DNA of 64,000 nucleotides from Roseovarius sp. (GCA_048267045.1 JBLWYG010000002.1:2977-66976); one strand, 5' to 3'; numbered from the stretch's first letter, positions 9,415 through 34,286 are shown. Numbers and translations: made by a program. The notes: generated from the sequence alone by a model not told the origin.

Positions 9415-10070
9415 GCGGCCCCCAGCCGATAGCCCATGCCGCGCACCGTTTCGATCCGGTCATGGCCCAGCTTCTTGCGCAGGCGGCTGACATGCACCTC
9501 GATCGTGTTGCTGTCGATCTCTGCCTCGAAGGAATAGAGCCGCTCCTCCAGCTGCGCCTTGGAAAACAGCTGACCGGGCCGCTGCAGAAGCGCCTCCAGC
9601 AGCACCCATTCGCGCGCGGTAAGCGCCACCGGCCGGCCATCCCGCAGGACCGAGCGTGCGGCCAGATCAATCTCCAGATCCCGAAGCGTGATCAACGGAT
9701 TGGGATTTCCCGAATAGCGCCGCGCCACCGACCCGACCCGCGCCGACAATTCGGCCAGATCGAAGGGCTTGATCATGTAATCGTCCGCGCCCGCATTCAG
9801 CCCCTCGATCCGATCGCTGATCTGGTCCATCGCGGTCAGGATGATCACCGGCGTGACATCGCCGCGCGTGCGCAGCGCGCGCAGGAACGGCTGGCCGCGC
9901 CCGTCGGGCAGCATCAGGTCCAGCAGGATCAGATCATAGTTGGCCACGTCCAGAAATTCGCGCGCCGCATCCAGCCGCCCGGCCCAGTCCACAGAATGGC
10001 CGTCGGCGGCGATCTGGTCATGCACCGCCCCCGCCAGCACCGTATCGTCCTCGATCAGCAATACACGCAT
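9411..10070 (-). CDS. OmpR-family response regulator (QseB-like)
   Basis: LLIEDD, LLDLMLPDG, GADDYMIKPF, IETVRGMGYRL; 4-nt overlap with the kinase. Confidence 0.95.
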   Translation of the reverse strand: MRVLLIEDDTVLAGAVHDQIAADGHSVDWAGRLDAAREFLDVANYDLILLDLMLPDGRGQPFLRALRTRGDVTPVIILTAMDQISDRIEGLNAGADDYMIKPFDLAELSARVGSVARRYSGNPNPLITLRDLEIDLAARSVLRDGRPVALTAREWVLLEALLQRPGQLFSKAQLEERLYSFEAEIDSNTIEVHVSRLRKKLGHDRIETVRGMGYRLGAA

Positions 10071-17093: not shown

Positions 17094-18416
17094 TCAAAGC
17101 CCGTATTGTTCGCGCGCGTAGTTGCCAAGACCCACGGCGTCCAACTTGCCCAGAGGAGCGAGGAACGTCACCTGTATCACGCCCGGCGCGCGTCCGATTT
17201 CAATCGCGCCATTCACCGTCGCCCGGTTGCGAATCTCGGCCACGGTCACGTCCAGCAGCCTGGCAGCCCGCGCCAGGCCGTTTTCGATGGCGTCATTGAG
17301 GTTTGCGGCTGTTCCGATGACGGAAATCGGCGCCAGGGGCTCAATGTCGGTCACGCCCCACCTGGCCGCCAGACGTTCGCCCTTGGCCTTTTCCTCGGCG
17401 CTGAATGGCTTGGCCATCGGCGGCAGATCCTCTACCAGCGGGAACAGCACCGGCCCATCCAGCGGATAATCCTTTACCACCTCGACCTGCAAGGTCACGC
17501 TGCCCGACACGTCCATCGTATGACCGGCAATCTCGCCATCGCCCTGCCCCGCGTGCATGTCGCCCATATAGACACCCGCGCCCTTCACCTTGACCGGGCA
17601 GACCAGAATGGCCCCGGCGCGCACCGCGTCGATATCCATGTGGCCGTCGGTCTTGTGCTCGGCCAGTTGCTCGGCAGTGATGCCGTAGTCATGCGGCGCC
17701 CCCACAAGGAACGCGCCGAAATCGCCCGCATTGTGGCTGTCAGGCATCGGCATCGACGGACAGGTCCCCAACTGTCCCATGAAGGGGCGCATGCGCACCA
17801 GCGTGCCCGGCATGTCCGAGGGCGCATAGTTCAGGATGGAATGCTGGCGGCTGGCGTCCGGCAGCGCCGAATAGTGGTCGGCCTGCATCGCAATCGTCTC
17901 GGCCGCCGCTTTGGACAGGGTCAGGCCGACGCTGTGGGTGTCGTCAAAGGTGACAGTATAGCCATGCACGATCTCGAACGGGGTCACAGCATTGCCGCAG
18001 GCATCACATTTCACGGACTGCCCGCCGACCCCCTCGATATGCGTCTCTGGCCAGACCGTGTCGCACACCGGGCAGCGCGCGGCGACGTAAGGATCGCCCA
18101 GACAGAACCCCTCGGGCGAGCTGTCATGGCCCGACGCCGTGGCGATGGAGGTCACGGTAATGTCGCGGATGCGTATGGCAACGCCGTCGCCCACCTCGGC
18201 CCCGTCGACATGGACCGGCTGCGTTACCTCATGCCCGCCGCGCAGGCGCGGCGTGATCATCGGCCCCCAGCATCCCGGCGCGGTATTGGCGATGATGGTG
18301 CCACCATCCTCGACCGGGCCCAGCATTGGGGCGTTCGGGTCCAGAACGCTGTTGGTGAATTCATCCACGACAACGCTGCGGCGCGCGCTATGATCTGTCT
18401 TGCTACCGTCCGCCAT
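17094..18416 (-). CDS. Acetamidase/formamidase (FmdA/AmdA) family protein with a Cys4 insertion
   Basis: [34 protein letters not shown]; CPVC...CDAC insert; GGAGG RBS before ATG 18416. Confidence 0.85.
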
Positions 18417-18540
18417 GATATCCTCCGCCATGTTGCTATTTCCTTATTCAAACTTAGTTTACAATTCCCGGCACGCAAGCCGCGTTTGTGATCGCAATCG
18501 CGACCAGCGGAAAGCACCTGGGCCAACGAAGGCAGATGAT

Positions 18541-19209
18541 ATGGAAATGAATACTGACTTTTCGCAGCGCATCGTCGTGCATTCGGCAGATCTTCCCTGG
18601 CAGCCATCGCCCTCGCCCGGGGTCGAGCGGCGCATGCTGGACCGGATCGGCGGCGAGGTCGCGCGCGCGACCAGCATCGTACGCTTTGCGCCCGGCCACA
18701 GCTTTGCGCCGCATACCCATGGCGGCGGCGAGGAATTCGTTGTGCTGGAGGGCGTCTTTCAGGACGAGCATGGCGATTACCCGGCGGGCACCTACGTGCG
18801 CAATCCGCCGACGTCCCGCCACACGCCCCGCTCGGACGAGGGCTGCACCATTTTCGTCAAGCTGTGGCAGTTCGACCCCGAGGATCGCGATCAGTTCCGC
18901 AAGGGTATGCAGGACGGGCTGGCATCAGCCAGCAATGGCGTGCAGCGCGCCGAGTTGCACCGGGACGCGCACGAGGTCGTCAGCTATTATCAGTTGGACC
19001 CCGGCGCGGCGCTGGACACAGGCGCGCCGGGCGGCATCGAGGTGCTGGTGCTGGACGGGTCGGTGACCGAACGGGGCGACGTTCTGCTCAAGGGATCGTG
19101 GCTGCGCCTGCCCGAAGAACAGCCTCTGGCGGCGGTCGCGGGCGCTGAAGGCGCGGCGCTCTGGATCAAGACCGGGCATCTTCGCCATGTCGCGGCGCCC
19201 GATGTTTGA
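18541..19209 (+). CDS. Tandem ChrR-like cupin protein
   Basis: [43 protein letters not shown]; second cupin [10 protein letters not shown]...WLRLP. Confidence 0.88.
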
Positions 19210-19914: not shown

Positions 19915-20265
19915 CTAATCCGGCACCTTCTTGACGAATTGCGATTTCAAACTCATCTGCCCGAATGTGGGGATTTTGCAGTCGATGTCGTGATCCCCAT
20001 CGACCAGCCGGATGCCGCGCACCTTGGTCCCGACCTTCACCACAGACGACGAGCCCTTGACCTTGAGATCCTTGATCACCGTCACAGTGTCACCATCTTG
20101 CAGTATGTTGCCGACACTGTCGCGCACATCGCCAGCGGCGTCGGACTGCGCCTCCGACGACCATTCGTGGCCGCATTCGGGGCACATGAGAAGCGTATCC
20201 GCCTCATAGGTATAGACGGACGCACATTCGGGGCATGGGGGCAGATTCTGGGTCATGTTCTGCAT
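19915..20265 (-). CDS. yjdM: Zinc-ribbon protein YjdM (PhnA-like)
   Basis: LPPCPEC...CPECGHEW, DSVGNILQDGDTVTVIKDLKVKG, DHDIDCKI. Confidence 0.93.
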   Translation of the reverse strand: MQNMTQNLPPCPECASVYTYEADTLLMCPECGHEWSSEAQSDAAGDVRDSVGNILQDGDTVTVIKDLKVKGSSSVVKVGTKVRGIRLVDGDHDIDCKIPTFGQMSLKSQFVKKVPD

Positions 20266-20454
20266 ATAGACGGCTCGCGCGCTCCTGACCAGCGGCTGAT
20301 CGGCCTGCGCGAGGCTACCCGCGCCGTGCTGAATGGGCGCGGGCGCCGGTCATCGCCGCCCCGCGAGCTGCCACCAGCAGCGCTGCGTGCTGGCCGGAGA
20401 CTGGCCGCGCGGCAGACCGGTAGCATTCGAGGCAGCCTGTCCGCAGACCTGCTG

Positions 20455-20922
20455 TCACACCATATCCTTCAGACGGCCCAGACGCACCCCATGCAGCAAC
20501 ATGACCGTGTCGGCCTCCTGCGGCTCGAACCCCAGCCGGTCATAGACAGCACGCGCGCCGGGATTATCCTCGTATACCGTGAGTTTCAGGAAACGTGGCG
20601 CGCCCCAGATGGTCTGGTTCAGTGCGGCGGACAGCAGGCGCCGACCCATGCCGGTGCCGCGCGCGGCCTCGGCCACCCACAGGTCGCTGACATAGAGACC
20701 CGTGCCGCCGTGGATCGTGGAGAAAACCGGCATCGCCAGCAACGCAGCAGTACTATCCTCGGCCATCAGGCCCAGCGCGAAGGGGTGCGCTCCAAAAAGA
20801 GCCGCGCCCAGCGCGTCCCCATCGGCGCGATGCGCATCGCCCAGATGGTTCGACAGATGGCGCAGGCCTGCGTGGAACGCGGGCAAGGTTTCGGGCGTGA
20901 CGATCTGGATTGCCGCACTCAT
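20455..20922 (-). CDS. GNAT N-acetyltransferase, SSAT/diamine-acetyltransferase-like
   Basis: FSTIHGGTGLYVSDLWV, ARGTGMGRRLL, NPGARAVYDRLGF; overlaps the BKACE stop by 4 nt. Confidence 0.85.
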   Translation of the reverse strand: MSAAIQIVTPETLPAFHAGLRHLSNHLGDAHRADGDALGAALFGAHPFALGLMAEDSTAALLAMPVFSTIHGGTGLYVSDLWVAEAARGTGMGRRLLSAALNQTIWGAPRFLKLTVYEDNPGARAVYDRLGFEPQEADTVMLLHGVRLGRLKDMV

Positions 20923-21848
20923 TGGATGGCCGTCGCGTCGCCGCCCTTCAGGTGCAGCATCGCGCGCGCCTCGCCGGGGGTGGCGATGTCGCGCCCCAGA
21001 TCCTCGACGATGCGGCGGATTTTGGTGACCTGCTCGGCATTGGTTCTGGCCAATGTCCCGCGCGAGATCATCAGCGAATCCTCCAGGCCGACGCGCACGT
21101 GCCCGCCAAGAATGGCCGACATGGTGATCAGCGGCATTTGATGGCGACCTGCCGCAAGCACGGAAAAGGTATAGCTATCGCCAAACAGCTTGTCGGCAAT
21201 CGCCTTCATGTGAGTCAGGTTTTCAGGGTCCGGGCCGATGCCGCCCAGCACGCCGAATACGAACTGGATGAACAAAGGCGCCTTTGCCAGCCCGCGATCC
21301 ACGAAATGTTTCAGCATATAGAGGTGACTGACGTCGTAGCACTCAAACTCGAACCGCGCGCCGCGCTTGTCGCCCATCTGGTGCAGCACATGCACCATGT
21401 CGCGCGGTGTGTTCTTGAAGATCAGATCGTCGGAATTCTCAAGAAACGGTTTTTCCCAGTCATGTTTCCAGTCCGTGATCCGCTCGGCGGCAGGATAAAG
21501 CGCGAAATTCATCGTGCCCATGTTGAGCGAGCACATTTCCGGCTCGGCCTGCATGGGCGCGGCCAGGCGCTGCTCCAGCGTCATGGTTGCGCTGCCTCCG
21601 GTGGTCAGGTTCAGCACCGCGTCGCAATTCTGCTTGATGCGCGGCAGGAAGGCGTTGAAATGCTCGGGGCTGGCCGAGGGCCGCCCATTCTCAGGATCGC
21701 GCGCATGCAGGTGCAGAATCGCCGCGCCGGCCTCGGCGGCGCCGATGGATGCTTCGGTGATCTGATCGGCGGTGATCGGCAGATGGGGCGACATCGACGG
21801 CGTGTGGATGGACCCGGTGATCGCGCAGGTGATGATGATCTTCGACAT
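20919..21848 (-). CDS. Beta-keto acid cleavage enzyme (BKACE/Kce, DUF849)
   Basis: IITCAITGS, AGAAILHLHARDP, TTGG, SLNMGTMN, EFECYD, GGHVRVGLED. Confidence 0.93.
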   Translation of the reverse strand: MSKIIITCAITGSIHTPSMSPHLPITADQITEASIGAAEAGAAILHLHARDPENGRPSASPEHFNAFLPRIKQNCDAVLNLTTGGSATMTLEQRLAAPMQAEPEMCSLNMGTMNFALYPAAERITDWKHDWEKPFLENSDDLIFKNTPRDMVHVLHQMGDKRGARFEFECYDVSHLYMLKHFVDRGLAKAPLFIQFVFGVLGGIGPDPENLTHMKAIADKLFGDSYTFSVLAAGRHQMPLITMSAILGGHVRVGLEDSLMISRGTLARTNAEQVTKIRRIVEDLGRDIATPGEARAMLHLKGGDATAIQ

Positions 21849-21851
21849 ATC

Positions 21852-23186
21852 CTATTCCGCCGCCAATTTGGGCATTTCGGCCATGAATTGCGCCAATGAG
21901 CGGTCCAGCATGTCGGTCATCTCGTCCAGTTGCGCCTCGGTCACGATCATCGGCGGGCAGACGAGGAAATGATCGCCCGACGTGCCGCCCCGCGTGCGGC
22001 GCGAATAGATGATCAACCCGTTGTCATAGGCGATATCGACCAGCCGGCTATGCGCGTTCAGCCCCTTGGGCAGCGGCGCTGTGGTGCCGCGATCCGCCAT
22101 CAGTTCGAACGCGGTCAGCAGACCCTTGCCGCGCACGTCGCCGATCAGTGGATAGCGCTGCATCAGGCCGCGCAGCCGTTCGGCCAACTTGTCGCCCATC
22201 TTGGCGGCGTTGCTGACCATATCCTGCCGGGCAATCTCGTCCAGAACAGCGGACCCAGCCGCGCAGGCCAGCGGGTTGCCGGCATAGGTGAACCCGTGGA
22301 TGAACCCGCCCGCGTTCATCACCGCATCGACCATGTCATCGCGCGCGATCATCGCGCCAAGAGGCGCGTAGCCGGCGCCAAATCCCTTGGACAGACAAAT
22401 GAGGTCGGGCGCGGTATCCCAATGTTCAGCGCCGAAAAACGCGCCTGTGCGCCCGCCGCCTGTCATCACCTCGTCATGTATCAAGAGCACGCCGTATTCG
22501 GAGCAAATCTCGCGGATGCGCTGCATATAGCCCAGTGGCGGCACCAAAGCCCCGGTAGAGGCGCCGCCGACAGGTTCGACGATGAAGGCCATGACCGTTT
22601 CCGGCCCCTCGTCGAGGATCTTCTGCTCCAGCAGGTCGGCGTAATACCAGCCTGTTGCCGCATCATCAGGATCGAGCCCATCCAGATAGGCGCGCGGCGC
22701 GGGGATTTTCGGCATCCGCTGCATCATCGGATCAAACGGCGCCGTCATCGTCGACATGCCGGTAATGGCCAGCGCGCCCAGCGTGCAGCCGTGATAACTG
22801 GGAAAGCGGGAGATCACCTTGAACCGCTGCGCCTGTCCTTGGGTCAGCACGTATTGGCGCGCCAGCTTCAGACAGCTTTCCACTGCCTCCGACCCGCCGG
22901 AGACAAAGAACACCTTGTTCAGATTCTCAGGCGTCAACGCCACGATCTTCTGCGCCAGATCCTCCGATGCGTCCGTCTGGAAATGCAGGCGATAGCCGAA
23001 AGTGGATTTCTCCATCTGCGTACGCATCGCGCCCAGAACGGCAGGGTTGGAGTGGCCAATATTGGACACCATCGCGCCGGACGAGCCGTCGATGTAGCGT
23101 TTGCCATGGACGTCATACATATAGATGCCGTCCGCCCGGTCCAGCACGGGGCGGGGCGATTTCGTCTGGTAAAAAAGGTTAGACAT
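21852..23186 (-). CDS. Class-III PLP-dependent aminotransferase
   Basis: YIDGSSG, SGGSEAVE, SYHGCT, FIVEPVGG, IHDEVMTGGGRTG, SKGFGAG (PLP Lys), HGFTYAGNP. Confidence 0.93.
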   Translation of the reverse strand: MSNLFYQTKSPRPVLDRADGIYMYDVHGKRYIDGSSGAMVSNIGHSNPAVLGAMRTQMEKSTFGYRLHFQTDASEDLAQKIVALTPENLNKVFFVSGGSEAVESCLKLARQYVLTQGQAQRFKVISRFPSYHGCTLGALAITGMSTMTAPFDPMMQRMPKIPAPRAYLDGLDPDDAATGWYYADLLEQKILDEGPETVMAFIVEPVGGASTGALVPPLGYMQRIREICSEYGVLLIHDEVMTGGGRTGAFFGAEHWDTAPDLICLSKGFGAGYAPLGAMIARDDMVDAVMNAGGFIHGFTYAGNPLACAAGSAVLDEIARQDMVSNAAKMGDKLAERLRGLMQRYPLIGDVRGKGLLTAFELMADRGTTAPLPKGLNAHSRLVDIAYDNGLIIYSRRTRGGTSGDHFLVCPPMIVTEAQLDEMTDMLDRSLAQFMAEMPKLAAE

Positions 23187-23195
23187 ATTATGCCC

Positions 23196-23957
23196 TTAGC
23201 GGCTGAGGTGTTTGCGCAGGAAATTCTTGGTGCGCTCTTCCTCGGGGTTCTGGAAAATGACGTCGGGCGGGCCTTCCTCGACCACGACGCCCCGATCCAT
23301 GAACAGCACGCGGTCGCAAACGCTGGCGGCGAAATCCATCTCATGGGTAACGATGATCATGGTCATATGCTGCTCGGCCAGCTTTTTCATCACAAGGTTC
23401 ACTTCCTCGACCAGTTCGGGGTCCAGCGCTGATGTCGCTTCGTCAAACAGCATCACCTTGGGCTTCATCGCCAGCGCGCGGGCAATCGCCACGCGCTGTT
23501 TCTGTCCACCCGACAGACGCGAGGGGAAGACGTCGATCTTGTCCGACAGGCCGACATGGGCCAGCTGCTCCTCGGCCAGCTTGTTCGCGTCGGCCGTGGA
23601 CATACCCTTGAGCATCTTGGGCGCCAGCGTGATGTTGTCGCGCACGTTAAGATGGGGAAACAGGTTGAAGTGCTGGAACACCATGCCGATGTCCTGCCGC
23701 ACCTGATTGACGTGCTTTTCATACTGGCGATGCGGCAGCTTCTTGTTGATCTGCACGCCCTCCAGCCAGACCTCGCCCGAACTCAGGGGGTCAAGCTCGT
23801 TGATGGCGCGCAGCAGCGTGGATTTGCCCGAGCCTGACGGACCGATGATGGCAACGATCTGGCCACGCTCGACGGTCAGATTAATATCCTTTAGCACCTC
23901 AAGCGAGCCAAAGCTTTTCGCGGCGTGGCGGATTTCGATGAAGGGGGTATCGGTCAT
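23196..23957 (-). CDS. Polar amino-acid ABC transporter ATP-binding protein
   Basis: [34 protein letters not shown]. Confidence 0.95.
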
Positions 23958-23967
23958 GAAAGTCTCC

Positions 23968-24624
23968 TTACCGCTGGGCCGCGATGCGGCGCTCAAGGCG
24001 GCGCAATCCGGCCTCAAGGCACAGGTTGATGACGTAATAGAGTGCGGCGACGGTTATGTAGAATTCGAACGGGCGATAGGTGCGGCTGATCGCCTGCTGC
24101 GCCGACAGGGTCAACTCGGCCACGCCGATGACGGACACCAGTGCGGAATCCTTGAGCAGCGCGATCATGTTGTTACCCATCGGGGGCACCACCGCCTGCA
24201 CCGCTTGTGGGATCACGATCCGGCGCAGCGTCTGGCCCCGCGACAGGCCCAGAGTGCGCGCGCCCTCGTACTGCCCCTTGTCCACCGACAGGATCGACGC
24301 CTGGATCAGCTCGGAATTATAGACCGCGAAATGCAGGCCCAGCCCGATGACGCCGGCAACAAAGGCCGGCAGGTCGATGCCGATCTGGATCAGGCCGAAA
24401 TATATCAGGAACAGTTGCAACAGCAGCGGCGTGCCCATGAACAGCCACGCAAACAGGCGGAATGGCAGGCGGACCACCCAGTGACCGTAAAGCGCGATGA
24501 CGGCAAAGACGATCCCGCCGAAGAAGCTGAGCAGACCGGCCCCGATGGTGATGGCAATCGTCCAGACCATGCCGAGCAGAAGCATGCCCCAGTAGCCGGG
24601 GACGACGGTGAAATCAAGACCCAT
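23968..24624 (-). CDS. Polar amino-acid ABC permease
   Basis: [28 protein letters not shown] loop, LLKDSAL. Confidence 0.93.
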
Positions 24625-24672
24625 GGCGGCCTCCTGTCAGCGGTGCGGTGGGGATTGCAGGGACCGAAACGC

Positions 24673-25320
24673 TCATGAAATGCGCGCCCTGCGGTCCAGC
24701 CAGTTGATGCCCTGCCCGACCACATAGATGAAGATCATGTAAAGAACGCCGGCCATCAGGAACATCTCGAACGGCTTGTAAGTCGACCCGATGAACCGCT
24801 GCGCGGTCTGGGTCAGCTCGATCACCGAAATCGGCGCCAGCAGCGCGGTGCCCTTGATCAGCGCGTTGATATTCACGCCCAGCGGGCGGATCATCATGCG
24901 CGCGGCCTGCGGCAGAACCACCTTGCGCATCGTCTCCCACTTGCTCATGCCCAGTGTACGCGCCGCCTCGGTCTGGCCGCGATCAACCGACAGGATGGCG
25001 CCGCGGATCGTCTCGGTCATGTAGGCGCCGATATTGACACCCAAGGCGATCGTACCGGCCGTGAAGGCATCCAGCTGAATGCCGATCTGCGGACCGCCAA
25101 AATAGAGAATGAACACCTGGATCAGCGCCGGCGTGCCGCGAAACAGGCTGACATAGGTCGCCGCAATCCAGCGCAACGGCGCCAGCCGTGACATGCGCAT
25201 CGCCGCACCCACCGCGCCGCAGGCAAGGCCCAGCAAGCAGGTCAGGACCGACAGCTGCACCGTGACCAGCGCGGCTTGCAGGAAGAAGGGGTAAACCCGC
25301 AGCATCAGCTCGATATCCAA
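24673..25320 (-). CDS. Polar amino-acid ABC permease
   Basis: FRGTPALIQVF, AYMTETIRG, GQTEAARTLG; TTG start with CAGGAG RBS. Confidence 0.93.
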   Translation of the reverse strand: MDIELMLRVYPFFLQAALVTVQLSVLTCLLGLACGAVGAAMRMSRLAPLRWIAATYVSLFRGTPALIQVFILYFGGPQIGIQLDAFTAGTIALGVNIGAYMTETIRGAILSVDRGQTEAARTLGMSKWETMRKVVLPQAARMMIRPLGVNINALIKGTALLAPISVIELTQTAQRFIGSTYKPFEMFLMAGVLYMIFIYVVGQGINWLDRRARIS

Positions 25321-25449
25321 GCGAAATCTCCTGTGATGGGGGCGCCGGACGGCACGGCGCGGCAGTCAGGCAAGGAGCCGGGGCGATCGGGTCCCGCTCC
25401 GGCCTGCCATGTCGGGCCCGCCGGACAATGCCCGGCAGGCCAGCACGAT

Positions 25450-26241
25450 TTAGCGGATGTCGCCGCCGACCCACTCGTTCGCGAGTTCCATGTAGGTGCC
25501 GTCTTCCATCATGCTGTCCAGCGCCTCCTGCATGGCGGCCTGAAGCTCGGGGTTGTCCTGACGGATGGCTATGCCGGCCGGGAACGCCTCGGCGTCGGGC
25601 GCCGGGATTTCGGCCAGATCGTACTGGCCCGATTTCATCGCCAGCAGGACCGGGATCGAATCGTTGATGACAACGTCGATACGTCCGTTCGTCAGCTCCA
25701 GCAGCAGTTCGGGCAGGCCCTTGTAGGTCTTGACGTTGTAGCCCTGCTCGCGCGCCCACTCGTCATGCGTCTCGCCCAGCGTCAGGCCGACGGTGACATC
25801 GGGATCATTCAGTTGATCCAGCGACGTGATGTCCGACCCCGCGACGGTAAAGAACGCGCGCTTGGTGTTGTAGTAAGGGCCGACGAAGTCGATGACCTTG
25901 TCACGCTCCTCGGTAATGGACATCGAGCCGACGACCGCATCGAACTTGTTCGCGATGAGGCCCCCGATGATGCCGTCCCACGCGGTGGTGACGATTTCCG
26001 TCTCCAGCCCCATGCGCTTGGCAATCTCGGTGCCGATGGCCGGATCGAAGCCCACGACTTCGTTATTTTCATTCACGAAGTTGAAAGGCGGATACTGGCC
26101 CGTCATCGCGATGCGCAGAACGCCAGCCTCCTTGATCGCCTCCAGATCGTCGGCGAATGCGGGCTGCGTGATCATCGCACCCAGCAGCGCGGCGCTGCCC
26201 ATCAGGACCGTGCGGCGCATCATCTTGGCAATCATTGTCAT
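25450..26241 (-). CDS. Amino-acid ABC substrate-binding protein (SBP family 3)
   Basis: Signal peptide; TGQYPPFNF, GFD, WDGIIGGL, SMSITEER. Confidence 0.93.
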   Translation of the reverse strand: MTMIAKMMRRTVLMGSAALLGAMITQPAFADDLEAIKEAGVLRIAMTGQYPPFNFVNENNEVVGFDPAIGTEIAKRMGLETEIVTTAWDGIIGGLIANKFDAVVGSMSITEERDKVIDFVGPYYNTKRAFFTVAGSDITSLDQLNDPDVTVGLTLGETHDEWAREQGYNVKTYKGLPELLLELTNGRIDVVINDSIPVLLAMKSGQYDLAEIPAPDAEAFPAGIAIRQDNPELQAAMQEALDSMMEDGTYMELANEWVGGDIR

Positions 26242-26338
26242 ATTCGGTTTCTCCCGTTGAATATTGTCTGTTTCAGGCTGCGGCACCCGGCAGGTGCGCT
26301 CTTTGGGCCTTGCCATGAGGTTTGCACAGGCACCAATC

Positions 26339-26353
26339 ATCATGCAAATAGAT
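26339..26353. promoter_or_regulatory. Candidate LysR T-N11-A box in the divergent SBP/lysR intergenic region
   Basis: ATC-ATGCAAATA-GAT dyad; short motif, could be chance. Confidence 0.4.
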
Positions 26354-26382
26354 AAAGCCAATGGCCCGGATTGAGAGAATCA

Positions 26383-27339
26383 ATGATGCGCCCATATGAA
26401 CAACGCTTTGTCTGGAATCTGGACTGGAACCTGCTGCGCACCTTCATGGTGATGGTCGAACAGGGCGGAATCACCCCCGCCGCCACCTTTCTGGGGCTCA
26501 AGCAGCCGACCATCAGTTCCGCGCTCAAGCGGCTTGAGGCGCAGGTGGGCAAGCGGCTGGTCAACCGGTCGTCGACGCATTTCAGCGTGACGCCGATGGG
26601 CGAGGTTCTGTATCGCGAAACCAGCACGATCTTCGGGTCGGTCATGCAACTGCCCATATTGCTGAGCGGCGCCGAGGATGCCGTGACCGGCCAGATCGCC
26701 ATCGCACTGGCCAGCCATATCGCGTGCCCGCATTTCGACGCCGTTCTGGAGCGGTTCAACACCGCCCATCCTGACGTGACCTATACGCTCAGCATCAATG
26801 AGAGCGAGGAGGTCATCACGCGGGTCGAGCAGAACCGCGTGTCGTTCGGGATCTGCCTTGTGTCGCACAAGCGGCCCAAGCTGGAATACCGCGTGCTCTA
26901 CCGCGAATATTTCGGCCATTACTGCGGACCGGGGCATCGCCTCTTCGGCAGGACCGGGCTGAAACTGTCCGATCTTGCGGACGAGGTGGCCGTGTCCTTT
27001 CAGACCGACAGCAGCGCCGGGCCGCTGTTCGAACTGGCGGGCCTGCGCGCGCGGGCGGGTATGCGCTCGGAGCTCAAGGGCGTGTCGTCCAGCCTGTCCG
27101 AGGTGCGGCGCATGATCATGTGCAATGTCGGCATCGGCGCCCTGCCCGTCCATGTCGCGGCGCGCGATGTTGCCGCCGGGCGCTTGTGGCAATTGCCGCC
27201 CAGCACGAATCTGCCTGCCATCGACATTCACGTCGTCACCAATCCCGCGCGCAGCCAGAACCGCGCCGAGGCCGTGCTGTCACGGATGCTGGTCGACGAA
27301 ATTGTCGGCACCCCCCTGTCCGAGCGGTCCTATTCGTGA
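26383..27339 (+). CDS. LysR-family transcriptional regulator
   Basis: LDWNLLRTF..., QPTISSALKRLE HTH plus substrate-binding domain. Confidence 0.93.
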   Translation: MMRPYEQRFVWNLDWNLLRTFMVMVEQGGITPAATFLGLKQPTISSALKRLEAQVGKRLVNRSSTHFSVTPMGEVLYRETSTIFGSVMQLPILLSGAEDAVTGQIAIALASHIACPHFDAVLERFNTAHPDVTYTLSINESEEVITRVEQNRVSFGICLVSHKRPKLEYRVLYREYFGHYCGPGHRLFGRTGLKLSDLADEVAVSFQTDSSAGPLFELAGLRARAGMRSELKGVSSSLSEVRRMIMCNVGIGALPVHVAARDVAAGRLWQLPPSTNLPAIDIHVVTNPARSQNRAEAVLSRMLVDEIVGTPLSERSYS

Positions 27340-28182: not shown

Positions 28183-29340
28183 CTAGAGCCCCGTCTCCAG
28201 CCGGTCCAGCACGCGCGCCAGCATCGCATCGCACGCGTCCAACTGTGCGGCGTCGATGAATTCATCCGGTTTGTGCCCTTGCGCCATATGCCCCGGCCCG
28301 CAGACCGCCGTGGCCATGCCGAGGCGGTTGTGGAACAGCCCCCCCTCGGTGCCGAAGGCGACCTTGATCGCGGGATCATCGCTGCCTGTCACATCACGCA
28401 GAAACGCGACAATGGCGGACTCCGGGTTCGTCTCAAGGCCGGGATAAGTGTTGGTTTCAGCAAAATCGATGGCGACATGCGGATGGCTGTCGCGATAAGG
28501 CGCGACGATCTGCGCTGCGTCCCCGGCAAGGTCCGCGACGATGCTGGCAGGATCATCCGCCGCGATATTGCGAATCTCGAAATCCAGCGTGCAGTGATCT
28601 GGCACGATGTTCAACTGCACACCGCCGTGCATGATGCCCGCGTGAAGCGTGGTGTAGGGGATCGAATACGACTCGTCGCGGGCACCATTTGCGGCGATAT
28701 CGGCCTGCCTTGCGCGCAGGCGGGCCATGAAATCGGCGCCCAGATGCAGCGCATTGATCCCCTCGGGCGCAAGGGCCGAGTGGCTGGCATGGCCGGTGCA
28801 GGTGGCGCGCAGGGCCGTCTTGCCCTTGTGGCCGGTGGCAATCTGCATTCCCGTCGGCTCGCCCACGATGCACAGCGCGGGGCGGATGCTGCGCGGCTCC
28901 AGCGCGTCGATCAGGCTGCGCACGCCGACGCAGCCGATTTCCTCGTCATAGGAAAAGGCCAGATGCAGCGGTGTTTTCAGATCGCGCGTCGCGGCCAGCC
29001 GGGCAGCATGAATGGCGGCGGCGACAAATCCCTTCATGTCCGCCGTGCCGCGCCCGTAGTATCGTGCCCCATCGCGGCGCATGCTGAAAGGATCGCCCGA
29101 CCAAACCTGACCTTCGACCGGCACCACATCGGTATGACCCGACAGCATCACGCCGGGGCGATCGCGTGGGCCGATGGTGGCGAAAAGGTTGGCGCGCGCG
29201 CCGTCCTTCGTGCCGACCGTCTCGAACTGGACGCCAACATCACTCAGAAGCGCAGCGATATACGAGATCAGATCCAGATTGGGCGTCCGGCTGATGCTGG
29301 GAAAGGCGATGAGCCGGTCAAGGATGTCCAGGGTTTTCAT
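28183..29340 (-). CDS. argE: M20A deacylase, acetylornithine deacetylase ArgE-like
   Basis: LSGHTDVVP, GRGTADMKG, DEEIGC, GEPT, HSA, GTEGG, GHKPDE. Confidence 0.85.
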   Translation of the reverse strand: MKTLDILDRLIAFPSISRTPNLDLISYIAALLSDVGVQFETVGTKDGARANLFATIGPRDRPGVMLSGHTDVVPVEGQVWSGDPFSMRRDGARYYGRGTADMKGFVAAAIHAARLAATRDLKTPLHLAFSYDEEIGCVGVRSLIDALEPRSIRPALCIVGEPTGMQIATGHKGKTALRATCTGHASHSALAPEGINALHLGADFMARLRARQADIAANGARDESYSIPYTTLHAGIMHGGVQLNIVPDHCTLDFEIRNIAADDPASIVADLAGDAAQIVAPYRDSHPHVAIDFAETNTYPGLETNPESAIVAFLRDVTGSDDPAIKVAFGTEGGLFHNRLGMATAVCGPGHMAQGHKPDEFIDAAQLDACDAMLARVLDRLETGL

Positions 29341-29508
29341 TCCCCTAGGTGTCCCCCGGCACGACGCCGCAGGGCGGCTCGGGCGGGTTGGCGCGCGGCT
29401 GTGATGGCCCCCGTCGAATGTCCCGGCGATCGGCTTTGGCGCTGCTCCGGACGGTCGCATGATACGCGTTCAGCAGACGCGCGTCCGAAAGACGCATCGT
29501 GTCGTAAA

Positions 29509-30663
29509 TCATGTATTTTGCCCCGGACTGGCCAGACGGGGCGCGATGCGGCCGCTGAGATATTGTGCAAAATCGTAATTCGGCCGCTCCAGATGCGACA
29601 GGTGGCCCGGCGCGGCAAAGGTCGAGCACAGACCGCGATAAACCTTTTCGGTGCAGCCGCGATCCTCGACATTGACTTCGTCCAGCAGGGTTTTCAACTG
29701 TTCGAACAGCGGCGCGGCCTCGGGATCGGCGGCGTGGTGGCGCGACATGCCGCCGCCGAACGTGATGCGCACCTTCCCCACGCCCTCGGGATGCAGGCTG
29801 AGATACCAGAAATACCCCGGCGTCAGCGTGATCAGCAGCGACGGGTAGATCGCCAGCAGAAAGGTGGTGCGCGCAGCGTCACCTGTCAGCGCGGTGTTCT
29901 TTTCGTGCGGCATCGCGATTTTGAAGGCCGCATCCTTGAGGATCGTGTGGTAATTGAAAGCCGGGCGCCCCTCGGGGCAGACCATTTCCTCCAGTTTGCT
30001 GAGGCCGCCGATCGTGCCGGCATGGCAGACCGGCAAGTGATAGCTTTCCATGAAATTCTCGGCCAGCACCTTCCAGTTCGTGTCCCAGACGTGGGTTTCG
30101 TGAAACGATTCGCGGTAGCCTTCCATATCGTAGCCCGCGATCATCTGCGCAACTTCGGCCAACTGCTGGGCCACGGGGGGCGCGTCGGGGTTCAGCGTGA
30201 CGAACACCCAGCCCAGCCATTCCTCGCAACGGACCTTGGGCAGTTTGTACTGGTCCTTGCAGAAGCCTTCGTTCAGCGTCATGCCGGGCGCGCCGCGCAA
30301 GCTGCCATCCAGATTATAGGTCCACGCATGATAGGGGCAGACGATGGCGCGGGTGTTGCCGCGCCCGTGCAGCAGCGTCGACATACGGTGCAGGCAGACG
30401 TTGGACATGGCGCGCAAGTTGCCTTCGCGGTCGCGGATCACCGCGATGGGCTGGTTCGCCAGGTCGGTCGTCAAGTAGTCGCCGGGATCGGCCAGTGCAT
30501 CGGCGCGGCCGACGCAGAACCAATCCCTTGCAAAGATGTGATCCAGCTCCTGTTGCAGAAACTCTTCGGAAGTATAAACCGATGGCGGCATCGCCCGCGC
30601 ACCCTCGAATGGTTGCGATGCGTTTGCCATCAACTCGTCAATTGCGCGTGTCTCGTGTCCCAT
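29509..30663 (-). CDS. Rieske non-heme iron oxygenase alpha subunit (choline monooxygenase/betaine demethylase-like)
   Basis: CLH...CPYH Rieske ligands; ENFMESYHLPVCH; EDRGCTE. Confidence 0.92.
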   Translation of the reverse strand: MGHETRAIDELMANASQPFEGARAMPPSVYTSEEFLQQELDHIFARDWFCVGRADALADPGDYLTTDLANQPIAVIRDREGNLRAMSNVCLHRMSTLLHGRGNTRAIVCPYHAWTYNLDGSLRGAPGMTLNEGFCKDQYKLPKVRCEEWLGWVFVTLNPDAPPVAQQLAEVAQMIAGYDMEGYRESFHETHVWDTNWKVLAENFMESYHLPVCHAGTIGGLSKLEEMVCPEGRPAFNYHTILKDAAFKIAMPHEKNTALTGDAARTTFLLAIYPSLLITLTPGYFWYLSLHPEGVGKVRITFGGGMSRHHAADPEAAPLFEQLKTLLDEVNVEDRGCTEKVYRGLCSTFAAPGHLSHLERPNYDFAQYLSGRIAPRLASPGQNT

Positions 30664-31037
30664 GGCTCGTCCTTTCGGGTCAGTGTGCCGCCGATGTCAG
30701 TTTCGGCGCAGTATAGCGCCGGACCAGCGTCCCGTCCCTTGCCTTTTTGGCTGGTGCGGGGCCTGCGCCGACAGGCGCCGATGCAAACTCAAGGCCTGGG
30801 CCACCACGCGGACGCACAAAAACGACGCGCCAATGTCGCAAATGGGCATTTTGCGGGTTGATCTGTGACCTCAGCAGGTTAGTGTCGCGCACCAATGCGG
30901 CCCGGCGCGCAGGAGCAGCCTTTCAGACCCCGCGTTCTGAACGGGGCGACTTCATATCCTGGGCGCTAAAACGCTTCGACCGGTCCGGCAACGCAGATGT
31001 GCCGACCACAACAGAATGAATGGAGGAGTAACACCAG

Positions 31038-32009
31038 ATGAAACGCATTATTTACGGCGCCGCTTTTGCGGCCCTCGCGGCCCCCACGGCGGCCCTGGCA
31101 CAGGAGCAGTGCGGCGAGGTCACGATCACGCAGATGAACTGGGATTCGTCGGCAATCGTCACGGCGGTTTCGAAATTCCTGATGGAGCAGGGCTATGGCT
31201 GTGACGTGACCGCAGTGCCGTCCGATACGACACCCGCCGTCACATCGCTGTCGGAGAACAACGAGCCTGACATCGTGACCGAGCTGTGGACGAATTCCAC
31301 CGGCGATGTCTACAAGAAGATGAAGGCCGACGGCAAGATCGAGGAAGTCGGCAGCGTGCTGGATCCCGGCGGTGTCGAAGGCTGGTGGCTGCCCACCTAT
31401 CTGGTCGAGGCGCATCCCGAACTGGCGACGATCCAGGGCGTGATGGAGAACCCCGAACTGGTCGGCGGCATGTTCAACAACTGCCCCGATGGCTGGGGCT
31501 GCCGCATCGCCAACGACAACCTGATCCGCGCCTTCGGGCTGGAAGACGCAGGGTTTGAAATCTTCAACCATGGCTCCGGCGAAACGCTCGGCACGTCCAT
31601 GGCCTCGGCCTACCAGAACGAAGAGCCGTGGTTCGGCTACTACTGGGGCCCGACAACGCCGCTGGGCAAGTTCGACATGACCAGCATCGATCTGGGCGAA
31701 TTTGACGAGGCGGCACATCTGGCCAACCAGAACGTCGATACACCGGATCCAAAGCCGTCATCCTTTCCCTCGGCCCCCGTCCTGACGATCGTGACCAAGG
31801 ATTTCATGGAGGAGAAGCCTGACATCGCGGAATTGATGAGCAAGGTGACCTTCAAGACCGACACGATGAGCCAGATCCTCGCGTGGAAAGAGGAAAACAA
31901 CGCCTCCAATGAGGAAGCGGCAGTTTATTTCCTGCAGAACAACCCCGACGAGTGGAAAAGCTGGATCAACGATGCCGCCGCAGAAAAGCTGGCGCCACTG
32001 TTGAAGTGA
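31038..32009 (+). CDS. Betaine-type ABC substrate-binding protein (ProX/OpuAC superfamily, TmoX-like clade)
   Basis: Signal peptide; CGEVTITQMNW, GYGC, ELW, CPDGWGC, YYWGPT. Confidence 0.88.
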   Translation: MKRIIYGAAFAALAAPTAALAQEQCGEVTITQMNWDSSAIVTAVSKFLMEQGYGCDVTAVPSDTTPAVTSLSENNEPDIVTELWTNSTGDVYKKMKADGKIEEVGSVLDPGGVEGWWLPTYLVEAHPELATIQGVMENPELVGGMFNNCPDGWGCRIANDNLIRAFGLEDAGFEIFNHGSGETLGTSMASAYQNEEPWFGYYWGPTTPLGKFDMTSIDLGEFDEAAHLANQNVDTPDPKPSSFPSAPVLTIVTKDFMEEKPDIAELMSKVTFKTDTMSQILAWKEENNASNEEAAVYFLQNNPDEWKSWINDAAAEKLAPLLK

Positions 32010-32170
32010 TCGCATGCGGGTAGCGCCGCGCGCTCCCGCCCGACATTCGCAGAAATTGCGCCGAATGGGTGAGGCGCAGATAACCGACGGGGCCGGGTCT
32101 GCTGATCCGGCCCTGTTCCTGATTGAATCTGTTGAAATGGGCCGTGATCGACGGTCCGTATGAGGAATGC

Positions 32171-33205
32171 ATGGCGACATACGATTTCATTTTCGATACG
32201 CTTGGTCTGAGAAACTGGTGCGGCCCAAGCGGCGAGGCCGAAGGCGGCATGACCTCCATGGCGCAACTGCTGGCGCAGGCCTCTGGCACCGAAATCGAGA
32301 AATCGCCTTGGGAGACCCCTTTTCCATCAATGGATGCGCTGCACGATGCCTGCCCGTCCTTTCCGCAATCGCGGGAACTGACCTCGGGACTGGAAGAGGG
32401 GTTTTTGTCGGTCAAGGATGCGCTCAAGGTCGTCGTTGATCCGCTGACCCAACCACTGAGCTGGGCGCTGAACAATGCGTTGTGGATCATGCAGTCCGTG
32501 CCATGGTTCATCATGATCCCGCTATTGATGCTGATCGCCTATGGCGTCAGCCGTTCGGCGAAGCTGGTCGGGTTGGTGGTGCTCTGCTTCGGCTTTCTGG
32601 CCTTTGTGGATTACTATGATTACACGATGCAGACGCTGGCGATCATCTTTGTCTGTGCGTTCATATGCGTTCTGTTCGGTGTGCCTATCGGCATTGCCAT
32701 GTCGCGTAGTGACAGGGTTCAGCGCTCGATGATCCCCGTTCTGGACATGCTACAGACATTGCCGCCCTTCGTCTATCTGATCCCACTGATTTTCCTGTTT
32801 TCTGTAACCGAACCAAAGCTTTACGGAATTGCGATCATCCTTTACGCGATCGTGCCCGTTGTGCGCCTGACCGATCTGGGGATCCGTCTGGTCGACAAGG
32901 ACGTGATCGAGGCGGCCGATGCCTTTGGCATGAGCCAGAGGCAAAAGCTGTTCAACGTCCAGATCCCCTTGGCGCTGCCGAACATCATGGCGGGCGTCAA
33001 CCAGACCATCATGATGAGCCTGGCGATGGTCGTCATCGCCTCGCTGGTATCTGCCCCCGGTCTGGGTGTGCTGGTGCTGCGCGGCATCCGGTCGCTGGAG
33101 TTGGGTGTCGGGTTGCTGTCCGGTCTGGGTATCGTGTTGATCGCGATCATTCTGGACCGCGTGACCAAGGCGGCGCTGGCCCGCATCAACACAAGCCAAT
33201 CATAA
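32171..33205 (+). CDS. Betaine-type ABC permease (ProW-like) with an N-terminal extension
   Basis: LDMLQTLPPFVYLIP, EAADAFG, GVNQTIMMSLAMVVIASL. Confidence 0.92.
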   Translation: MATYDFIFDTLGLRNWCGPSGEAEGGMTSMAQLLAQASGTEIEKSPWETPFPSMDALHDACPSFPQSRELTSGLEEGFLSVKDALKVVVDPLTQPLSWALNNALWIMQSVPWFIMIPLLMLIAYGVSRSAKLVGLVVLCFGFLAFVDYYDYTMQTLAIIFVCAFICVLFGVPIGIAMSRSDRVQRSMIPVLDMLQTLPPFVYLIPLIFLFSVTEPKLYGIAIILYAIVPVVRLTDLGIRLVDKDVIEAADAFGMSQRQKLFNVQIPLALPNIMAGVNQTIMMSLAMVVIASLVSAPGLGVLVLRGIRSLELGVGLLSGLGIVLIAIILDRVTKAALARINTSQS

Positions 33206-33218
33206 GGAGGTGACGGAC

Positions 33219-34286
33219 ATGAGCGATGCAGACATCAAGATTTCGATCCGCAATCTCTACAAGATTTTCGGCGACGCCCCCCTGCCCGCCCTGCAACATG
33301 TCAAGGACGGCATGGGCAAGACCGAACTGCTCCAGGCGCATGGCCATGTGTTGGGCCTGAATGACATCAACGTGGATGTGCCGACGGGCAAGACGACGGT
33401 CATCATGGGGCTGTCGGGGTCGGGCAAGTCGACCCTGATCCGGCACCTCAACCGCCTGATCGAGCCAACTGCCGGTGAGATCTGGGTCGATGGCGAGAAT
33501 ATCCTGAATTACAGCGACAGGCAGTTGCGCCACCTGCGGCAGCATAAAATGTCGATGGTGTTCCAGAAATTCGCCCTGTTTCCACATCGCACGGTCCTGC
33601 AGAACGCCGGGCTGGCGCCCTCTGTCGAGGGTCAAAGGGAACGCAACTACGCCGATGAGGCGCGCAAATGGCTGGATCGGGTCGGCCTGCATGGACAGGG
33701 CGACCAGTATCCGCATCAGTTGTCCGGCGGAATGCAGCAGCGCGTCGGCATCGCACGGGCGCTGACCAGCAATTCCGACATCATGCTGATGGACGAGGCG
33801 TTTTCGGCACTGGACCCGCTGATCCGCACGGACATGCAAAACCTGTTGATCGAATTGCAGGACGAGTTGCACAAGACGGTCGTCTTCATCACACATGATC
33901 TGGACGAAGCGCTCAAGCTGGCGGATCATCTGGTGATCCTGAAGGACGGGTTTGTCGTCCAGCAGGGCGAGCCGCAGCATATTCTGCTGAACCCGGCGGA
34001 CCCCTATATCGAGGATTTTGTCAGCGATATCAACCGTGCGCGGGTGTTGCGCGTCCGCTCCGTAATGGATCGGACGTCCGAGCCGTCGGGCGACCATGCA
34101 GGCGAAATCGACCACGACGACACGCTTGAATCCGTCATCGCGCGGTCCGGGGGCAACACCATGCTGAGCTACCGTGTGGTGAAGGACGGCGTGCCGGTCG
34201 GGGTTCTGAATATGCGCAAACTTGTCCGCGCGCTGGTCCCGTCGGAGCAATCGGGAGACACCGAAAGTGCGCGGCGCAGCGGCTAA
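33219..34286 (+). CDS. Betaine-type ABC ATP-binding protein (ProV-like)
   Basis: GLSGSGKS, LSGGMQQRVGIARAL, MDEAFSALDPLIR, FITHDLDEAL. Confidence 0.94.
   Translation: MSDADIKISIRNLYKIFGDAPLPALQHVKDGMGKTELLQAHGHVLGLNDINVDVPTGKTTVIMGLSGSGKSTLIRHLNRLIEPTAGEIWVDGENILNYSDRQLRHLRQHKMSMVFQKFALFPHRTVLQNAGLAPSVEGQRERNYADEARKWLDRVGLHGQGDQYPHQLSGGMQQRVGIARALTSNSDIMLMDEAFSALDPLIRTDMQNLLIELQDELHKTVVFITHDLDEALKLADHLVILKDGFVVQQGEPQHILLNPADPYIEDFVSDINRARVLRVRSVMDRTSEPSGDHAGEIDHDDTLESVIARSGGNTMLSYRVVKDGVPVGVLNMRKLVRALVPSEQSGDTESARRSG

Follow-up and report, generated by a model that had tools for sequence, protein, structure and literature searches.

A stretch of 64,000 nucleotides from Roseovarius sp. [quoted passage not shown] The operon is a member of a widespread family in which an importer, an AT, a BKACE and an SSAT-like GNAT are joined by a deacetylase of the acetylpolyamine amidohydrolase (APAH) type. 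From gene content and synteny we infer that the window encodes LysR-controlled uptake and catabolism of substrates of the beta-lysine or N6-acetyl-beta-lysine class, an assignment of substrate and steps to which we give slightly less than an even chance. The broader logic, in which the substrate is an acetyl-protected basic beta-amino acid, is probable. That the family is the genetic basis of aerobic beta-lysine and N-epsilon-acetyl-beta-lysine catabolism is a more tentative claim, though a possible one.

In Pseudomonas B4, the Barker laboratory (1979-81) reportedly showed enzymatically that beta-lysine is acetylated on N6, transaminated to 3-keto-6-acetamidohexanoate, cleaved with acetyl-CoA and deacetylated. 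An earlier interpretation of the window, made from its sequence alone (the sequence-only reading), held that these steps lack assigned genes, and we found no published gene assignment in the literature searched. Could operons of this family encode the same chemistry? Their logic of protecting, transaminating, cleaving and deprotecting fits the Pseudomonas B4 route better than any alternative that we built.

The genes of the operon and its regulator, called from a listing of open reading frames (ORFs) and from Pfam and NCBIfam scans of the window's proteins, are as follows:

20455-20922, minus strand: GNAT N-acetyltransferase, SSAT / thialysine N-epsilon-acetyltransferase type (PF00583)
20919-21848, minus strand: BKACE (PF05853, 363 bits; NF053538, 516 bits)
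21852-23186, minus strand: class III (omega/beta-type) AT (PF00202, 335 bits)
23196-23957, minus strand: ABC ATPase, ATG start at 23957 (PF00005, 134 bits)
23968-24624, minus strand: ABC permease 2 (PF00528, BPD_transp_1)
24673-25320, minus strand: ABC permease 1, HisQ/M, EhuC/D-like (PF00528; TIGR01726 three-transmembrane domain)
25450-26241, minus strand: periplasmic substrate-binding protein (SBP), SBP_bac_3, polar/basic amino-acid type (PF00497, 133 bits)
26371-27339, plus strand: LysR-type regulator, divergent from the operon (PF00126 and PF03466)

The host is a Roseovarius-like member of the Rhodobacterales with a genome of 2.95 Mb in 96 contigs. Every gene named by the sequence-only reading, in the order SBP, permease, permease, ATPase, AT, BKACE, GNAT and divergent from a LysR gene, is found where it was placed; that observation is confirmed, and the reading as a whole is partly supported. 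Its description of the operon as tight is true from permease 2 onward, where 10 bp separate permease 2 from the ATPase, 9 bp the ATPase from the AT and 3 bp the AT from the BKACE, and where the BKACE and GNAT genes share a 4-bp ATGA overlap. Upstream the spacing is looser: the SBP gene stands 130 bp from that of permease 1, and the two permease genes are 48 bp apart. The GNAT, AT and BKACE, as candidates for N6-acetylation, transamination and beta-keto cleavage, lie in one putative transcription unit. A scan of the locus for promoters and terminators gave a site count not above that of shuffled sequence.

The trio of AT, BKACE and GNAT, singled out from the window alone, proves to be conserved across related loci. 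A scan of one genome per species yielded 80 BKACE loci at 62-87% identity, and neighbours were tabulated by tblastn and ORF clustering, with 82 BKACE loci in the tabulation. An orthologous AT lies directly upstream of the BKACE in 47 of the 82. This gene order is not due to chance: the arrangement of LysR, transporter, AT and BKACE recurs in those 47 loci of other genomes. Counts for the deacetylase and the GNAT rest on the 45 AT-linked loci with at least 1.7 kb of downstream sequence. A PF00850 deacetylase is present in 42 of them and a GNAT between BKACE and deacetylase in 36; 35 have both. Against solved APAHs the cluster deacetylase scores 284-301 bits. On the BKACE tree the AT-linked label needs 10 changes, against 23 for shuffled labels, and the window's BKACE falls inside a clade of 45 members, nearly all of them AT/deacetylase-linked. 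BKACEs of this clade are found, at an identity of at least 66%, in about 24 of 151 genera of the family.

What does this gene set say about the substrate? Since a GNAT and a deacetylase occur together in one catabolic operon, one should put on, and the other take off, an acetyl group that shields the substrate during reactions with which a free amine would interfere. For a BKACE to act after a class III AT, the starting compound must be a beta-amino acid. The combination of a distal-amine acetyltransferase, an N-acetyl-omega-amine deacetylase and importers of the basic amino-acid or polyamine type suggests that this beta-amino acid is a basic one. A DauA-like D-Arg/D-Lys dehydrogenase that keeps Glu87, the residue that binds a cationic side chain, is added to the operon in 13 of 38 loci and points in the same direction.

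Three enzymes of the window bear on the individual steps. Enzymes of the SSAT and thialysine types place an acetyl group on the distal amine of diamines and of compounds that resemble lysine, and NATA1 is an ornithine N5-acetyltransferase. The window's GNAT had been guessed from a motif to be SSAT-like, of a family that includes thialysine N-epsilon-acetyltransferase, and the guess was a good one. As a single sequence it gives weak matches only (12jc, 4.4e-5). A profile built from 26 orthologues and searched against structures matches, over its full length and ahead of all else, thialysine N-epsilon-acetyltransferase (12jc, 1.5e-25), SSAT2 (2bei, 2.8e-22), NATA1 (7e-18) and SSAT1 (1e-16). We propose that this GNAT is the beta-lysine N6-acetyltransferase. 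The AblB model is absent among its nine NCBIfam matches at E <= 0.001; if the GNAT does acetylate beta-lysine, it is a solution non-homologous to methanogen AblB within the GNAT fold.

The AT comes closest to NCBIfam model PRK07483 (458 bits, under the cut-off of 485), and its best structure match is 3i4j, followed by omega-transaminases. Its ratio of non-synonymous to synonymous substitutions (dN/dS) against relatives is 0.08. The proposed activity, with a substrate suggested by the company that the gene keeps, is that of an N6-acetyl-beta-lysine:2-oxo-acid transaminase.

In the window's BKACE, the only one of the host genome, the position of Glu14 of Kce is occupied by Ile; we take Glu14 to be the ammonium-binding residue of the Kce structure. 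The protein matches PF05853 (DUF849) over its whole length (profile positions 1-274 of 274) and is 59% identical to BKACE15 of Paracoccus denitrificans (PDB 8RIO). Aligned to 8RIO, it keeps the Zn ligands (two His and one Glu, with His46/His48 in HLHARD), the catalytic Glu of FEFECYD (E171 of BKACE15) and GGHVRVGLED (R254, Glu, Asp). The confirmed substrates of BKACE15 are uncharged, 3,5-dioxohexanoate being among them in vitro, and its physiological role is stated as unknown (8RIO study). Ile in place of Glu14, together with this likeness to an enzyme of uncharged substrates, places the window's BKACE outside the cationic and anionic subgroups, membership of which would tell against the proposal. 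Judged from the alignment, the pocket is non-cationic and the catalytic residues are intact. The substrate panel of Bastard et al. included a 6-acetamido-beta-keto acid, and BKACEs of group G1 turned it over, with 14 positive tests for G1 as a group (PMC4922564, S1 table). We suggest that the window's BKACE would cleave 3-keto-6-acetamidohexanoate with acetyl-CoA.

The importer is of a fitting type. The best solved relatives of the SBP bind Gln, Arg or Lys (GlnPQ SBD, AncQR, AncCDT-1 and Thermus LAO-BP), and 10 roseobacter loci have an orthologue of it, at 66-91% identity. The NCBIfam models nearest to the ATPase are EhuA, GlnQ and TcyN, each matched under its cut-off. Among related loci the importer is of the SBP_bac_3 type in 10, of the PotD-like SBP_bac_8 type in 21 and of the LIV type once (L050). 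A divergent LysR gene (44-95% identity) is present in 32 of the 39 related loci with enough upstream sequence; in the window its likelier start is an ATG near 26383. In one relative without GNAT and deacetylase the LysR match consists of two overlapping pieces in different frames (L007:4549-5513), the sign of a frameshifted regulator gene or of faulty assembly.

The proposed pathway would begin with uptake of L-beta-lysine, N-epsilon-acetyl-beta-lysine or both by the ABC importer. The GNAT would acetylate N6 of free beta-lysine, which would stop the later 3-keto intermediate from cyclising. The AT would convert N6-acetyl-beta-lysine to 3-keto-6-acetamidohexanoate, and the BKACE would transfer its acyl portion onto acetyl-CoA, with acetoacetate and 4-acetamidobutyryl-CoA as products. 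The acetoacetate could be used by the genome's 3-oxoacid CoA-transferases, of which there are two SCOT subunit pairs. Relatives would then deacetylate the other product to 4-aminobutyrate (GABA) or GABA-CoA by means of the APAH-type enzyme, whose gene directly follows that of the GNAT. No gene of the lysine 2,3-aminomutase family (KamA/AblA/EpmB) was found in the host genome; any beta-lysine must therefore come from outside, which fits scavenging.

The copy in the window departs from this scheme at its last step. The features that flank the operon are these:

17094-18431, minus strand: FmdA/AmdA-family amidase gene (only 44 bits to the formamidase equivalog)
18535-19209, plus strand: ChrR-type cupin gene, downstream of the operon
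19915-20265, minus strand: yjdM/phnA, downstream of the operon
20308-20460: deletion scar, 153 bp against about 2.04 kb in the closest relative, L108
27420-28148, plus strand: SDR oxidoreductase, 3' of LysR (PF13561/PF00106)
28183-29340, minus strand: ArgE-like M20 gene (NF005710, 497.8 bits against a cut-off of 412; TIGR01892, 359 against 298)
29509-30663, minus strand: Rieske oxygenase gene, directly upstream of the ArgE-like gene

L108 is a Roseovarius metagenome-assembled genome whose BKACE, AT and GNAT are 96%, 93% and 85% identical to those of the window. It has the full operon, after which come genes for a Lip_A acyltransferase, YjdM, the cupin and FmdA. Window positions 27843-20461 align with 1-7388 of L108, and 20307-19917 with 9427-9817, so that the two are collinear as far as the stop codon of the GNAT gene and become so once more 50 bp upstream of yjdM. 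Between these points about 2.04 kb of L108, holding the APAH-type deacetylase and Lip_A acyltransferase genes, is replaced by the window's 153 bp, in which a weak tblastx trace of the acyltransferase survives (E 7e-4). Judged against L108, a deletion of about 2 kb removed the dedicated deacetylase, so that the window's operon has no gene for the deacetylation step. Elsewhere in the clade, L110 (91%) has a complete operon, and both GNAT and deacetylase are gone from L007, L008 and Roseovarius sp. Pro17 (L109). The order from yjdM to fmdA is kept in L007 and L108.

A relocated deacetylase of the cluster type was sought in the host genome and not found; its two PF00850 genes are a 45%-identical paralogue, which sits in another cluster, and a distant one. 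That other cluster (C1:62000-80000, L087) comprises a GntR regulator, an Opp-type ABC importer, the APAH paralogue, a thiamine pyrophosphate enzyme, an M20 peptidase, an APH-type kinase and a class III AT. The last step of the pathway in this strain either falls to an unlinked amidohydrolase or is not done.

The GNAT that remains was also considered as a non-orthologous or decaying gene, and this is ruled out. Its identity of 45-50% to the GNATs of other genera is typical of a fast-evolving family, its identity to that of the nearest full operon is 85%, as given above, and its dN/dS of 0.18 equals the value between two full-operon relatives. It is still under purifying selection. The window thus presents a pathway in mid-decay, with the deacetylase deleted and the acetyltransferase under selection. 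Repeated loss in the clade suggests either that such strains live on the compound in its acetylated form and shed the acetamido product or deal with it by other means, or that the core serves a simpler beta-amino acid.

The sequence-only reading had filled the deacetylation step with the ArgE-like gene, described as lying 0.8 kb past LysR. The gene is real and ends 844 bp past LysR, but the SDR gene within that 0.8 kb was overlooked. As the missing deacetylase the ArgE-like gene is rejected on synteny. Of its orthologues in 19 other genomes of the family, none adjoins a gene of the cluster, and one has a Rieske gene as its neighbour. The clusters of L007, L008 and L109 have no such gene next to them, and in L110 the ArgE-like gene occurs together with the dedicated, HDAC-type deacetylase. 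The one-to-one map of genes onto the Pseudomonas B4 route is completed much better by the APAH-type deacetylase of 42 of the 45 loci than by ArgE. On this comparison of gene neighbourhoods the ArgE-like gene is no conserved part of the system and should be dropped from the model.

How firmly does the evidence point to beta-lysine? Several observations weigh against it. No report was found in which enzymes of the operon family were assayed with beta-lysine intermediates, and it is uncertain how much beta-lysine, free or acetylated, aerobic bacteria of the sea and of roots have at their disposal. Variant accessory genes (DauA-like with RidA, creatininase-like, DMFase-beta-like) have no place in a simple route. 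GNAT, deacetylase or both have been lost repeatedly in the Roseovarius clade (the window, L007, L008, L109), with transporter, AT and BKACE kept; the core may act on a compound that can do without acetylation and deacetylation. AT-linked BKACEs are set apart from unlinked ones by no more than five alignment columns (for example, Phe196 versus Thr/Met/Ser), and the NCBIfam name for the window's BKACE is 3,5-dioxohexanoate:acetyl-CoA acetone transferase. Finally, NetSyn Table S1 cluster 12 predicts valine-leucine interconversion for the same gene context (bioRxiv 10.1101/2023.02.15.528638).

That prediction belongs to the main rival, which we regard as unlikely. Here the substrate is a neutral aliphatic beta-amino acid such as beta-leucine, 3-aminopentanoate or 3-aminohexanoate; the AT yields beta-ketoisocaproate or beta-ketohexanoate, the BKACE yields acetoacetate and isobutyryl- or butyryl-CoA, and GNAT and deacetylase are accessory. 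G1 enzymes are indeed active on beta-ketoisocaproate, beta-ketopentanoate and beta-ketohexanoate (PMC4922564), one locus (L050) has a LIV-type ABC system, and several Roseovarius genomes keep the core after the loss of GNAT and deacetylase. Such a substrate, however, leaves no role for the deacetylase (42/45) or the GNAT (36/45), explaining two of the four conserved enzymes. It also sits poorly with a GNAT of the diamine / thialysine N-epsilon type, with transporters mostly of the basic/polar amino-acid or polyamine type and with a DauA-like partner that keeps its residue for a cationic side chain.

A second alternative retains the four-enzyme logic and changes the substrate to another diamino beta-amino acid: 3,5-diaminohexanoate, 3,5-diaminopentanoate, a beta-arginine-derived compound, beta-homolysine, or an N-acylated conjugate freed by a variable amidase. 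All evidence for that logic applies to it equally, and the variable amidohydrolases (creatininase-like, DMFase-beta-like) and varied transporters suggest substrates that are related, yet not identical, from lineage to lineage. The odds of such a substrate in place of beta-lysine seem low. To our knowledge exactly the B4-type route has been shown for beta-lysine and for no other compound of this kind, and beta-lysine alone accumulates naturally in N-acetylated form, as an osmolyte of methanogens; we know of none of the others as an abundant environmental metabolite.

Very improbable is a polyamine-derived beta-alanine route, in which acetylated fragments of 1,3-diaminopropane or spermidine are deacetylated, beta-alanine is transaminated to malonate semialdehyde and the BKACE forms acetoacetate and formyl-CoA. 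GNAT and deacetylase do belong to polyamine-metabolising families, many loci have a PotD-like SBP, and malonate semialdehyde is cleaved in vitro by more than 20 of 124 BKACEs, the related BKACE15 being best; the authors of that work nevertheless term it a non-native substrate (8RIO study). Across related loci the cluster has no conserved gene for an amine oxidase or an aldehyde dehydrogenase, the usual malonate-semialdehyde dehydrogenase route is simpler, and an acetyltransferase and a deacetylase together would be futile.

The least credible alternative takes the BKACE at its database name, as an enzyme that cleaves 3,5-dioxohexanoate (triacetate) in a polyketide- or phloroglucinol-type pathway unrelated to AT and GNAT: it has a score of 515.9 bits against the equivalog NF053538 (cut-off 430) and an in vitro substrate of BKACE15 on its side, and against it an AT/deacetylase-linked clade whose neighbours the BKACE15-like group lacks, a 3-bp gap and a 4-bp overlap in an order kept in 47 loci, which argue for one pathway with AT and GNAT, and no phloroglucinol-pathway genes nearby. 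The name of NF053538 stems from screening in vitro and does not stand for a pathway.

Loci of the family differ in what they add to the beta-lysine-type core. The DauA-like gene, often with RidA, extends the operon in Stappiaceae, Sneathiella, Kiloniella, Hoeflea and some roseobacters (L031:12428-13978, L027:13560-13913 and 11 more loci), and the pair accompanies a PotD-like importer in 12 of 13 loci. The DauA-like FAD protein scores 294 bits against 3NYC and keeps Tyr53, Glu87, Arg222, Tyr249 and Arg305, with Ile replacing His48. An amidase like the DMFase beta subunit (PF20254) appears in rhizobial, Arenimonas and Cypionkella variants (L083:6850-8601, L052:8335-9978, L080:8233-9975, L040:13054-14682), directly upstream of AT or BKACE in three of the four loci. 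In several roseobacter loci a creatininase-family gene (PF02633; L002:5689-6483, L013:5684-6559, L109:4705-5496, L110:4605-5396) separates the SBP gene from that of permease 1, at a position where the window (25321-25449) has only the 130-bp gap. A speculative role for it would be the opening of a lactam, for example 2-pyrrolidinone from 4-aminobutyryl-CoA.

The remaining neighbours stand apart from the operon. The SDR gene adjoins LysR at 87-99% identity in L007, L008, L108, L109 and L110 and is absent from the cluster in other genera; it is a neighbour conserved at the level of the genus. At 28183-34286 the Rieske and ArgE-like M20 genes form a minus-strand pair that faces a ProX/ProW/ProV-like, betaine-type ABC importer. 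The N-terminus of the Rieske protein is GbcA-like (149 bits, far under the cut-off), and in one other genome (L104) a Rieske gene of 75% identity likewise precedes an M20 gene. The set may be a unit that demethylates or deacylates a quaternary or N-substituted amine. In public sequencing runs, words of the locus were found in two metagenomes only, with about 5% of its words.

The assignment to beta-lysine is important because, if it is true, four activities described only biochemically some 45 years ago gain genes. The assignment would attach sequences to EC 2.6.1.65, to the enzyme that cleaves 3-keto-6-acetamidohexanoate, to EC 3.5.1.51/3.5.1.63 and to a bacterial acetyltransferase of the N6 of beta-lysine that has no relation to AblB. 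A BKACE subgroup that is widely mis-named ('3-keto-5-aminohexanoate cleavage' or '3,5-dioxohexanoate acetone transferase') would receive a physiological role. Aerobic marine Alphaproteobacteria and rhizobia would be scavengers of a solute best known from methanogens, and cultured strains could be used to test whether marine sediments and rhizospheres hold a sink for osmolytes of the beta-lysine type. The Roseovarius clade, with its full, GNAT-only (the window) and core-only operons, would offer natural knock-outs of the protect and deprotect steps. Among cultured bacteria the full version is carried by Roseibium aggregatum IAM 12614, Marivita geojedonensis and Pseudorhodobacter wandonensis, and the core-only version by Roseovarius sp. 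Pro17 and D0-M9. An acetyl protect/deprotect pair around a transaminase-BKACE core would be a small module, open to reuse, for the breakdown of diamino acids that would otherwise cyclise at the keto stage.

Compared with known systems, the window's BKACE shares with Kce its enzyme family, the acetyl-CoA-dependent cleavage to acetoacetate, the Zn ligands and the catalytic Glu and Arg. It differs in scoring only 150 bits against Kce, in having Ile for Glu14, in receiving its keto acid from a transaminase instead of a dehydrogenase, in the lack of aminomutases and in its aerobic setting. With BKACE15 and NF053538 it has in common 59% identity, the catalytic residues and a score above the model cut-off; BKACE15, in contrast, has another gene context, said to be aromatic degradation, and the AT-linked clade differs from it at five conserved columns. 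NetSyn cluster 12 (bioRxiv 10.1101/2023.02.15.528638) describes the same neighbours around G1 BKACEs, namely an amino-acid transporter, an acetylpolyamine amidohydrolase, a class III aminotransferase and an acetyltransferase, but predicts 'conversion from valine to leucine' (beta-leucine / beta-ketoisocaproate), with no role for acetyltransferase or deacetylase. Carnitine catabolism through dehydrocarnitine cleavage (BKACE G5) likewise uses a transporter-linked operon and a BKACE that gives acetoacetate and an acyl-CoA; there the keto acid is cationic and comes from a dehydrogenase, and there is neither an aminotransferase nor a pair of enzymes to put an acetyl group on and take it off.

The closest parallel is the Pseudomonas B4 route, whose enzymes from the Barker laboratory are said to be EC 2.6.1.65, the 3-keto-6-acetamidohexanoate cleavage enzyme and EC 3.5.1.51 / 3.5.1.63. 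No sequences are known for those enzymes, so the likeness is one of chemistry, by enzyme class. The window differs in having no deacetylase, the hosts are marine Alphaproteobacteria and rhizobia, and variants add DauA-like, RidA and other amidase genes. The order of the chemistry is the same, and the full operon family offers one candidate gene for each step.

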